Source: a phage
Direction: 5' to 3' (one strand)
Sequence record: PZ502562.2
Length of the DNA stretch: 38,725 nucleotides
Shown one piece after another: positions 858 through 35,277 of the stretch (position 1 is its first letter; each line of letters starts with the position of its first letter). The position numbers and the translations under genes were made by a program. The notes under the pieces were generated by a model. It was not told the DNA's origin and searched no databases. It saw only the letters and a program-made list of their open reading frames with translations.

Positions 858-1127
858 ATGGCTATGTCTAACATGACTTATAACAACGTTTTCGATCACG
901 CTTACGAAATGCTGAAAGAAAACATCCGTTATGATGACATCCGTGACGCTGATGACCTGCACGATGCAGTGCATATGGCGGCTGATGCTGCTGTTCCGCA
1001 CTATTACAGCGACGTTTTCAGTGTAATGGCAAGCGAGGGCATTGACCTTGAGTTTGAGGATTCTGGCCTGATGCCGGACACCAATGACGTAATCCGTATC
1101 TGCAAGCGCGTATCTATGAGCAATTAA
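858..1127 (+). CDS. 0.3: Ocr (DNA mimic, anti-restriction) with a frameshifted, truncated C-terminus: 89 aa against 117 aa in T7
   Basis: ORF-track protein [30 protein letters not shown]... matches T7 Ocr to about residue 80, then ends ICKRVSMSN*. The canonical C-terminus ([20 protein letters not shown]...acidic tail) is intact in the +1 frame (1103-1213). Confidence 0.85.
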
Positions 1128-1212
1128 CGATTGACCTTTGGGAAGACGCTGAGGACTTGCTGAACGAGTATCTTGAGGAAGTCGAGGAGTCAGAAGAGGA
1201 GGAAGAAGAGTA

Positions 1213-1347
1213 ATGGCTAACAACACCACGCAATACGGTCTGACCGCTCAAACTGTGCTGTTCTATAGCGATATGGTGCGCTGTGGCTTTGATTGGTCGC
1301 TCGCAATGGAACATCTTAAAGAACTGTACGAAACAACAAGGCAATAG
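1213..1347 (+). CDS. 0.4: Gene 0.4 protein (44 aa; FtsZ inhibitor in T7)
   Basis: ATG at 1213 overlaps the TAA of the canonical ocr frame; translation MANNTTQYGLTAQTVLFYSDMVRCGFDWSLAMEHLKELYETTRQ. Too short for the ORF track. Confidence 0.75.
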   Translation: MANNTTQYGLTAQTVLFYSDMVRCGFDWSLAMEHLKELYETTRQ

Positions 1348-5844: not shown

Positions 5845-6117
5845 ATGGGACGTTTATACAGTGGCAACTTAATAGCATACAAAGACGCTATCGAGAGACT
5901 TAAAGAAGACTATGATGCAAATGTGGTCGTTGAAACTTATCGCTATGAGGACTTCGAACAGCGACGGATGGTTGCCGGTGAGACACTTCGAGTGATATTG
6001 CGGGATGGCTTAATGCTGACCGCTAAGTGTTTCGAGCAGTCAGATGAAGACGTTCGCTGTAATGCACAGACCGAATGGCTCCGTAAGGTACACAGTGACC
6101 TACAGCACTGGAAGTAA
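5845..6117 (+). CDS. 1.2: Gp1.2-like protein (host dGTPase inhibitor in T7); divergent central region
   Basis: 90 aa; N-terminus MGRLYSGNL and C-terminus ...DEDV...W...DLQHWK match T7 gp1.2, the middle does not. Confidence 0.8.
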   Translation: MGRLYSGNLIAYKDAIERLKEDYDANVVVETYRYEDFEQRRMVAGETLRVILRDGLMLTAKCFEQSDEDVRCNAQTEWLRKVHSDLQHWK

Positions 6118-32624: not shown

Positions 32625-34466
32625 ATGGCTAACGTAATTAAAACCGTTTTGACTTACCAGTTAGATGGCTCCACTCATGATTTTAATATCCCGTTTGAGT
32701 ATCTAGCCCGTAAGTTCGTAGTGGTGACTCTTATTGGTGTAGACCGTAAGGTCCTTACGCTTAATACAGACTATCGCTTTGCTACACGTACTACCATCTC
32801 ACTGACTAAGGCTTGGGGTCCATCCGATGGCTACACGACCATCGAGTTACGCCGAGTAACCTCCACGACCGACCGCTTGGTTGACTTTACGGACGGCTCA
32901 ATCCTCCGTGCGTATGACCTTAACGTTGCTCAGATTCAAACGATGCACGTAGCGGAGGAGGCGCGCGACCTGACTGCTGATACAATCGGTGTCAATAATG
33001 ACGGTCACTTGGATGCCCGTGGTCGGCGTGTAGTGAACGTTGGTAATGCGGTAGACCGCGGGGATGCGGTTAACTTGGGGATGCTTCAAGATTGGGACAA
33101 CTCCGCCCTGAATCAAGCAGACCGTTCGGAGAAGGAGGCTGATAGGGCAGAGGCCGCTGCGTCCCAAGCTGACAGTAGCGCTGCTAAGGCTCTTTCTTCT
33201 GAGAAAAGTGCTTCCACAAGTGCTACTAACGCACTCGCTTCGGAGAATGCAGCAAAGGCATCACAAGTGGCTGCGGCTGGTAGCGCAAGTTCGTCAGAAC
33301 AATCTAAGAACGAGGCAAATGCCTACAAAGAGGCCGCGCAAACTGCCGCGGACACCGCGTCCAACCATGAGGATAAAGCCAAGGAGTACATGGAGAGGGC
33401 CGAGGCTGTCGCCTGCTCCAAGGAGAATCCGGTATCTGAGATAACGTTCACTACTGGTGGGTCATTAGGTTCTGAAAGGGCCAAGGTCCGGGACACAGTT
33501 ACCAACCGCATCTACTACTGGATTGGGACCTTCCCCAAGGTAATACCTGAAAACTCCGTAGGAGAAGACCTTATAAAGGCAGATGGTGACCTGTGGGATT
33601 CTCTGCAAAACCCTAACGGTAAGTGGGTAGACGCGGGTAACAGCGTCCCTGCACTAAGAACCACATTAGGAGAAGGAGTACCCTTCAAGTACGAGACGTA
33701 CCCGAAGGATAACCTCAACGCCATTACTGAGCGTCAATCCAATAGGGTGCGTGTGGCTACGTGGAACATTTGGGGAGCAGGTGCTCAAGGTAACTTTGGT
33801 TCACTGGGTTCTGCCGATAGGATAAAGGCCCTACAGGAGCGATGGCTCAACCAAAAGCTAGACTACGTAGGTCTACAGGAGTGCTATTTCAACGACACAT
33901 TCTACCCATTCTCCATGTATACAATAGGTTCTCTCCACACTGCATTCGTACAGACGTGCGAACCTTATGAGTCTGGAATAACCATCCTGGATTTCGACTA
34001 CGGTACGGGATGTGTAAGCAGTGGCGCTGACGTGAAGATGTCTGGAGGAATCTATAAGGACAGCATCGGAAGCTCAGTGGATAAGGAGCGCCGAGCGTGG
34101 ACTCGCACAGAGACTACCATTAGGGGCCGTAAGTACGTAATATACAATACACATCTCAGCTATGATAGGGCGCGATTCACTCAGCAGCAGTCAGAGTTGA
34201 ACAACCTCCTATTAGCAGAGACTAACCCACAAGTAATCGTAATGGGAGATTTCAACCACGACGACATCACGTTGTTTCAGCCATTACTTGATGCCGGATG
34301 GTCTATGGGCCAGAACAAAGAGTTTAATACTAACAACACCGGCGGAAAATGGCACATTGATAATATACTGTACAAAGGGTTCTCTAAGAGAGTTGATAGA
34401 GGAACTCAGGACGCACCAAGTTCTCTATCTGACCATAAATTATTCTATGTGGAACTGGAGGTATAA
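32625..34466 (+). CDS. 17: Chimeric tail fibre: T7-like tail-attachment N-terminus, Ala/Ser-rich shaft, C-terminal EEP (endonuclease/exonuclease/phosphatase)-fold domain
   Basis: 613 aa. Residues 1 to about 150 match T7 gp17; the rest is unrelated to the T7 shaft and tip. C-terminal motifs in EEP order: VATWNIWG, DYVGLQECY, VIYNTHLSYD, VIVMGDFNHDD, SDHKLFYVE. Confidence 0.9.
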   Translation: MANVIKTVLTYQLDGSTHDFNIPFEYLARKFVVVTLIGVDRKVLTLNTDYRFATRTTISLTKAWGPSDGYTTIELRRVTSTTDRLVDFTDGSILRAYDLNVAQIQTMHVAEEARDLTADTIGVNNDGHLDARGRRVVNVGNAVDRGDAVNLGMLQDWDNSALNQADRSEKEADRAEAAASQADSSAAKALSSEKSASTSATNALASENAAKASQVAAAGSASSSEQSKNEANAYKEAAQTAADTASNHEDKAKEYMERAEAVACSKENPVSEITFTTGGSLGSERAKVRDTVTNRIYYWIGTFPKVIPENSVGEDLIKADGDLWDSLQNPNGKWVDAGNSVPALRTTLGEGVPFKYETYPKDNLNAITERQSNRVRVATWNIWGAGAQGNFGSLGSADRIKALQERWLNQKLDYVGLQECYFNDTFYPFSMYTIGSLHTAFVQTCEPYESGITILDFDYGTGCVSSGADVKMSGGIYKDSIGSSVDKERRAWTRTETTIRGRKYVIYNTHLSYDRARFTQQQSELNNLLLAETNPQVIVMGDFNHDDITLFQPLLDAGWSMGQNKEFNTNNTGGKWHIDNILYKGFSKRVDRGTQDAPSSLSDHKLFYVELEV

Positions 34467-34467
34467 C

Positions 34468-35277
34468 ATGACCAACAAACTACTAGTAAACACTGAGGTA
34501 GCTCTCGCGGATGGGGACGCTCTATCCCTAGAGATGGTTCGTATGCGAAACGAACTGACAATCGCTAAGGCGGTTCAGGGTGAGACCCATTTCTACAAGA
34601 GTGTTAAGGATATGGGCATTACCGGGAAGGTTACGCTACTCTCCATTGCGAAGAGGATGCGCCGACGCTCTGTCCTCATCGTGAGTGTGTACGGAGGGAC
34701 CAGTGATGGTCCTGACCTTCCGCTCCCTTACTTCAACTCAGGGACTCCTGTTTATATGTCCGGCATACTTTGGGCGTACAAGATGGAGGATGAGAAAAAA
34801 GTCTATTTCGAGTGGCGTAACGAGAACATGACTGCCCGGTGTAACTATAACGCACACGTTGAGGACAAGGTTACTCCGTGGGTGTTCGATATGCTACCTA
34901 AGATGAATGCTACGGCTGGTCCGGGATACTGGCAGAACAGGATGTCAAATATTTGGGTTCCGGGGACGTATTACTTCACTAGAGACCAGATGAACGGCTT
35001 CACCGATAGACCTGTACTTGGAGGGGGCTACTTGGAGGTAATGAATGCAGGTAACTCACCTACTTCTGACAGAAACTATGTATTCACCTTAAACACTTCG
35101 GACCAACACAAGTGGTCCCGTCAAAATGATGGGGATTGGAGAATCATCCCTGTGTGCTTCACCGCAGCCGTACATGACAGCCAGATGCGCGTGGGTGATA
35201 TGAAAGTGGCAAGCAATGGTATGCTCCATATCAGAGTAAGCTCCAGTAAAGTGGGCCAGATTGCCACCGTTGGATAA
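34468..35277 (+). CDS. Hypothetical 269-aa protein downstream of the tail fibre; no counterpart in T7
   Basis: ATG 34468 lies 1 nt after the gene 17 TAA, with RBS GGAGG at 34457-34461. The ORF track shows a longer version from 34288 overlapping gene 17. Aromatic/Asn/Gly-rich, no signal peptide, no recognisable catalytic motif. Confidence 0.75.
   Translation: MTNKLLVNTEVALADGDALSLEMVRMRNELTIAKAVQGETHFYKSVKDMGITGKVTLLSIAKRMRRRSVLIVSVYGGTSDGPDLPLPYFNSGTPVYMSGILWAYKMEDEKKVYFEWRNENMTARCNYNAHVEDKVTPWVFDMLPKMNATAGPGYWQNRMSNIWVPGTYYFTRDQMNGFTDRPVLGGGYLEVMNAGNSPTSDRNYVFTLNTSDQHKWSRQNDGDWRIIPVCFTAAVHDSQMRVGDMKVASNGMLHIRVSSSKVGQIATVG

Follow-up and report, generated by a model that had tools for sequence, protein, structure and literature searches.

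The window analysed here is the whole of sequence record PZ502562.2, 38,725 nt in length, near the left end of which lies the early gene ocr (gene 0.3), broken by a single-base frameshift and followed by gene 0.4. All features of the two genes described below are carried by the plus strand. The ocr Shine-Dalgarno sequence, GAGGT (845-849), is identical in the five relatives of our first alignment (alignment A1: HZ2R8, PGX1, EG1, IME390 and T7), and because it is intact, the open reading frame downstream should still be translated. This frame (858-1127) specifies 89 aa and is composed of native Ocr codons 1 to 81 (858-1100, delimited by tblastn and by Pfam PF08684, with the ending DTNDVIRI), then of eight out-of-frame codons for CKRVSMSN with a premature TAA at 1125-1127 (1101-1127 together). 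The original prediction, made from the letters of this DNA, described a match to Ocr up to about residue 80 and a stop at 1127, and both points are borne out.

DNA alignments place the lesion at 1100-1101, where exactly one base fewer than in the relatives is found between T1099/C1100 and T1101, PZ502562.2 reading ATC-TG against ATC-CTG or ATT-CTG. The extra base is present in all six relatives aligned, as ATCCTG in five and as ATTCTG in PGX1; the sixth is a contig from the Logan resource (alignment A3). A deletion of one base in a CC run around position 1100 had been proposed. The deletion stands, but the CC run is that of the relatives, a single C being left at position 1100 here, and the CC found at 1094-1095 is unrelated to it.

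Beyond the break, the 3' part of ocr persists as an untranslated remnant (1103-1213, codons 83 to 118) that holds the remainder of helix 4 together with the acidic tail. Its translation, QARIYEQ...EEEEEE up to the TAA at 1211-1213, is an intact Ocr C-terminus out of frame. The earlier reading had correctly placed this C-terminus and its stop, and erred as to the frame, which is -1 (equivalent to +2) and not +1. The TAA of the remnant overlaps the ATG of gene 0.4, and the resulting TAATG (1211-1215) is kept in the remnant frame.

The gene can be recognized with ease on both sides of the break. Residues 1 to 83 of T7 gp0.3 and IME390 gp01 align with 858-1106 in tblastn at 90 to 94% identity, and the 89-aa product matches the Pfam ocr family PF08684 with an E-value of 7.9e-47 over profile positions 1-81 of 101. 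Once the missing base is restored, the product is 118 aa long, matches the same family over positions 1-101 of 101 (E = 2.8e-61), aligns with T7 Ocr (PDB 1S7Z) over residues 1-117 (E = 4e-68) and is 98.3% identical to the Ocr of PGX1. These matches of the restored product, together with the alignments, confirm that a single-base frameshift truncates the DNA mimic. Judged by sequence, the resemblance to Ocr is homology rather than chance. Moreover, the gene is the first early gene and shares a stop/start overlap with gene 0.4, as does T7 ocr.

Three further observations concern the ocr region. First, the acidic tail has undergone an in-frame loss of 6 nt at approximately 1198/1199 relative to the five relatives, which carry TACGAG or TACGAA (Tyr-Glu) there; the length of the Ocr tail is naturally variable, with a family range of 108 to 123 aa. 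Second, the motif CGTATCT occurs twice, 14 nt apart (1095-1101 and 1109-1115), and it is the deletion that makes the first copy of this quasi-repeat match the second. This identity is probably a coincidence; it could also hint at a templated or slippage origin of the deletion. Finally, the ocr DNA of HZ2R8 (L001; GenBank MG832642.1, 319-681) is intact and has no CDS annotation in its record.

Genomic context

PZ502562.2 is a complete T7-like phage genome (genus Teseptimavirus), colinear with T7 over genes 0.3 to 19.5 according to tblastn, and about 92% identical to the closest GenBank phages over the first 25 kb of the genome. The gene order 0.3-0.4-0.5-0.6-0.7-1 is that of T7. The T7 promoter consensus is matched 11 times with at most three mismatches, six of these 11 matches being exact. 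The left terminus is a T7-type left end (CTCACAGTGTA...), and at its other terminus the sequence stops just short of the second, right-hand copy of this repeat at the ends of the genome. When the proteomes of T7 and IME390 were compared with the genome by tblastn, around 45 other conserved genes were found at full length in one frame, genes 0.3 and 0.4 being the only broken ones.

No match was obtained by tblastn in the whole genome for T7 genes 1.4, 1.5, 1.7, 2.8, 3.8, 5.3 and 7.7, which belong to the usual variable set, homing-endonuclease genes among them. Gene 1.2, which encodes a dGTPase inhibitor and is the target of F exclusion, lies at 5845-6114 and is only about 35% identical to its T7 and IME390 versions, compared with 76 to 97% for the flanking genes; it still matches the Pfam family T7-like_gp12.

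The tail-fibre gene 17 (32625-34466, 613 aa) combines the N-terminal T7 adaptor domain PF03906 (residues 1-155) with a C-terminal domain of the endonuclease/exonuclease/phosphatase family PF03372 (residues 378-604, E = 2.9e-12), which may be an enzymatic receptor-binding domain. The closest relatives of this protein are the tail fibres of the Citrobacter rodentium phages CR44b, CR8 and CrRp3, to which the C-terminal domain is only 41 to 48% identical. Given this resemblance, at so low an identity, the host may not be E. coli, and the relevance of EcoKI and PARIS to this phage is therefore assumed. An extra gene of about 270 aa (approximately 34465-35277, MTNKLLVNTEV...) separates gene 17 from the holin gene 17.5, and its start overlaps the stop of gene 17. 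It has no Pfam match, and T7 and IME390 carry no gene between 17 and 17.5. The overlapping reading frames of this region (32625-34466 and 34288-35277) were considered as a candidate third frameshift, and this candidate was rejected: they are two genes, the second of which begins with an ATG (at about 34465) that overlaps the stop of gene 17.

Consequences of the truncation for Ocr

Ocr of T7 is a DNA-mimic inhibitor of type I restriction-modification (R-M) systems and of BREX. A 94%-identical homologue modelled with AF2 (mean pLDDT 89.4) shows helices over residues 8-25, 31-45, 50-57 and 78-120. Residues 78-81 are all that stays in frame of the fourth helix, the longest of them, in PZ502562.2. 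The loss of the acidic tail had been foreseen together with that of a part of the last helix; the former is indeed gone, and for the latter the damage is greater than proposed, as nearly all of the helix is removed. By direct count, 17 of the 35 acidic residues (Asp and Glu) lie downstream of the break. Across 44 homologues the lost segment includes the invariant R85, and L82, Q83, A84, I86, Y87, E88, L90 and D93 are each at least 90% conserved.

L82 belongs to the Ocr dimer interface and to the surface that docks on AriA, and the T7 substitutions L82R and F54V escape PARIS (PMC10802264). In the truncated product F54 is kept, L82 is replaced by Cys, and all residues downstream are gone. Translation stops after 89 codons, short of the roughly 108 to 123 aa that an intact frame covering the four helices would have. 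Among the 120 Ocr clusters listed, 115 fall in the range of 108 to 123 aa, four are short and one reaches 140 aa; counted as protein clusters, 4 of 122 are truncated. The gene is thus ocr by homology and by position, yet it is devoid of two features of functional members, namely an intact reading frame of about 110 to 120 aa and L82.

The extent of a tolerable C-terminal loss has been explored in T7. Ocr lacking residues 99-116 (Ocr99) is still active, and C-terminal deletion with concomitant structural destabilisation has been reported to abolish its activity (PMC3439906). The 89-aa peptide of PZ502562.2 would likely be unstable and would not fold into the DNA mimic, and the allele is therefore likely null, both for anti-restriction and for the triggering of PARIS. 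BREX is also inhibited by Ocr (PMC7261183). Since the genome contains two EcoKI and four EcoBI sites, the loss of Ocr should matter on hosts equipped with these systems.

A second one-base deletion in gene 0.4

Gene 0.4 (1213-1347), whose product inhibits FtsZ, encodes 44 aa here against 51 aa in the relatives (alignment A2). It lacks one base in an A-run now at 1331-1333, where GAAAAC of the relatives has become GAAAC. The new stop, TAG at 1345-1347, precedes the original TGA at 1365-1367, and the C-terminus reads LYETTRQ* (44 aa) in place of LYENNKAIALESAE* (51 aa). Coverage in tblastn is accordingly confined to residues 1-43 of 51. At this site, AAAA is found in 12 of 12 IMG/VR contigs with matching flanks. 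Just past the frameshift, at 1356-1364, four private substitutions are clustered in 9 nt (TCCACCCAG against TCTGCTGAG in all five relatives); drift subsequent to the frameshift could account for this cluster, as could a lack of constraint on the tail.

The CapRelEbc defence is triggered by Gp0.4 together with FtsZ, and among the T7 mutants that escape it is one in which gene 0.4 is frameshifted by the deletion of one base (PMC13423816). The text of that paper does not state where this deletion falls relative to the A-run affected here. Residues at Gp0.4 positions 12-39 matter for binding to FtsZ or to CapRelEbc (PMC13423816). The 44-aa protein keeps A12, T14, V15, L16, S19, V22, R23, W28, M32, L35 and Y39, and since all mapped binding residues are retained, it may still be active and sensed.

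Precedents among T7-like phages

Compared with T7 Ocr (gp0.3, PDB 1S7Z, PF08684), the gene of PZ502562.2 occupies the same position (first of the class I genes, upstream of 0.4), and residues 1-81 are 90% identical. It differs in that the frame is broken at codon 82, that helix 4 and the acidic tail are untranslated, and that the tail is 6 nt shorter.

Lesions of this kind are well documented in the laboratory. When T7 was challenged with PARIS on EcoKI-less DH10B, 15 of 16 escapers carried frameshifts or nonsense mutations in ocr, and the reported alleles are dT35, dG209, 247C>T and 265C>T (PMC9122126). From the codon numbering, 247C>T corresponds to Q83* and 265C>T to Q89*. Of these mutants, ocr(dT35) shows poor plating on EcoKI+ MG1655 as long as EcoKI has not been knocked down (PMC9122126). 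The PZ502562.2 lesion falls into this category, being a single-base frameshift that leads to a premature stop, and its cut is almost identical to that of Q83*, with native residues 1-81 here and 1-82 in the latter. Unlike the laboratory escapers, it occurs in a divergent, wild-type-like Teseptimavirus genome and adds eight foreign residues.

A second precedent was found in Logan, where a T7-like contig of 39,750 bp (SRR23581759 and SRR23581751; L018, 3001-3365, and L019) carries an ocr with two lesions, namely the loss of one base from a T4 run (codon 53/54) and the replacement of GAG by TAG at the codon aligned with E107. Like PZ502562.2, this lineage presents an independent one-base break of ocr in an otherwise complete T7-like genome. 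The sites differ, and the Logan allele is found in two read sets, whereas the PZ502562.2 allele was seen once.

Origin of the frameshifts

We consider that a real and recent null mutation of ocr is a better explanation than a sequencing error, with a probability of about 0.65. Raw reads alone can rule out a sequencing error, and for this reason the real mutation stays a leaning.

The competing view is that PZ502562.2 truly encodes an Ocr of 118 aa and a Gp0.4 of 51 aa, and that the consensus dropped one base at each of the two sites. We regard it as the less probable of the two, though it accounts for several observations. The remnant is flawless: its 29 helix residues are all as in the relatives, and codons 82-111 differ from each of the five relatives by three to eight synonymous and no non-synonymous changes. 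A remnant with synonymous changes only leaves two readings, a very recent lesion or an artefact. The allele is also unique among all related sequences found. An exact 36-mer spanning the deletion was not found in IMG/VR, and patterns allowing zero or one base at the site retrieved nine IMG/VR contigs and one metagenome contig, in each of which the extra base is present, and none from the GTDB genomes. Across IMG/VR, the JGI metagenomes and the GTDB genomes, the allele thus occurs in no second genome, and the 89-aa product is absent from the gene-position index. Exact-product searches with the 44-aa Gp0.4, the kinase and the RNA polymerase were equally negative, and PZ502562.2 itself has no entry in the phage, IMG/VR, metagenome and gene-position collections consulted. 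Furthermore, the site of the second deletion, 235 nt away from the first, is an A4 homopolymer, a typical context for errors, and one poor stretch of sequence could explain both.

Against a faulty consensus stands the quality of the rest of the genome. In 33,028 nt of other conserved coding sequence, free of frameshifts, 146 homopolymer runs of at least 4 bases were counted (138 of 4, seven of 5 and one of 6), none of them broken. The base missing from ocr was lost from a former 2-base run, a CC to C miscall that would be atypical of homopolymer-type errors. Unbroken runs of 4 or more bases combined with a lesion in a 2-base run are not the signature of a homopolymer-prone platform. Sequencing errors fall regardless of gene essentiality, and both frameshifts lie in adjacent, dispensable early genes. 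From gene lengths, we estimate at about 3% the chance that two random errors in approximately 34 kb of coding sequence would both hit dispensable genes, and at about 1.4% the chance that they would fall within 235 nt of each other. As the T7-type left end is precisely where the assembly begins, the site does not lie at the ragged end of a contig. Finally, real ocr frameshifts are on record, both in the laboratory (PMC9122126) and in the Logan lineage. The suggestion that a sequencing error was equally possible consequently does not hold, considering the 2-base run, the 146 longer runs left unbroken and the confinement of the damage to dispensable genes.

Under a real mutation, the likeliest course of events would be the following. 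Very recently in evolution, ocr, the first early gene, would have lost one base at codon 81/82. Ribosomes would initiate normally, read 81 native and eight wrong residues and stop at the UAA (1125-1127), releasing an 89-aa product without nearly all of helix 4, against which the other three helices are predicted to pack. With it would go L82, with its roles in the dimer interface and in AriA docking, the conserved block Q83-D93 and almost half of the acidic charge counted above. The predicted phenotype is that type I R-M and BREX would no longer be blocked and that PARIS would no longer be triggered. Such a mutation would most likely have been tolerated or mildly favoured on a host without active type I R-M or BREX, for instance an isolation or propagation strain, and the one-base deletion in gene 0.4 would be another lesion of this type.

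A more specific proposal is that the deletion became fixed because Ocr triggers abortive infection, by PARIS for example, in the host. It is a sub-case of the real mutation that bears on its cause only, and we deem it improbable. By analogy with the escapers of PMC9122126, the idea of an escape mutation put forward in the original prediction is possible: PARIS is triggered by Ocr, the escape alleles on record include a truncation at Q83 (PMC9122126), and AriA is contacted through L82 (PMC10802264). The CapRelEbc system, to which Gp0.4 and FtsZ act as the trigger and from which T7 has escaped by a gene 0.4 frameshift (PMC13423816), suggests a further step, in which a sensor of the CapRel type might have been evaded in parallel through the lesion in gene 0.4; that both adjacent trigger genes are lesioned here is suggestive in this respect. 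Nevertheless, the 44-aa Gp0.4 with its full set of mapped residues may still be sensed, and selection is indistinguishable from neutral loss in the sequence. Neutral loss on an R-M-free host, such as a propagation strain, fits the data equally well. It is more doubtful still that a T7-like phage has, in nature, disposed of two neighbouring alarm proteins (Ocr, sensed by PARIS, and Gp0.4 with FtsZ, sensed by CapRelEbc), at the cost of one base each, thereby trading anti-restriction and cell-division control for invisibility.

The last alternative, that a -1 frameshift or transcriptional slippage within 1088-1127 would yield a full-length Ocr, takes its inspiration from gene 10A/10B of T7, the annotation of which has a joined gene 10 product for the minor capsid protein gp10B (-1 frameshifting) and also lists the 'possible' genes 0.6B and 5.5-5.7. 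Both ocr frames do overlap over 40 nt, but neither an X XXY YYZ heptamer nor a homopolymer of at least 3 bases occurs in this overlap (1088-1127), and the downstream 87 nt of RNA show no extra structure (minimum free energy of -17.7 kcal/mol; the shuffles average -18.5, z = +0.26). Apart from the Logan contigs L018 and L019, with their different lesion at codon 53/54, every relative examined has Ocr in one frame, which means that there is no conserved recoding device. Without a slippery heptamer, without RNA structure and without conservation of the two-frame layout, programmed frameshifting was rejected as extremely improbable.

Concluding remarks

The class of lesion described here is already known and nothing about it is mechanistically new; a probable pseudogenised ocr is a useful point of annotation. 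No new question is opened, since good descriptions exist for the gene, for its structure and targets, and for mutations of this class. Should the frameshift turn out to be an artefact, the outcome would be an annotation fix and nothing more. If, as we favour, the mutation is real, PZ502562.2 would be a natural ocr-null Teseptimavirus, restricted by hosts with type I R-M and BREX and invisible to PARIS. This would matter for host-range prediction, for screens of defence systems and for the use of such phages in therapy, and the genome would provide a field example for the laboratory finding that counter-defence genes vanish fast once they become liabilities.
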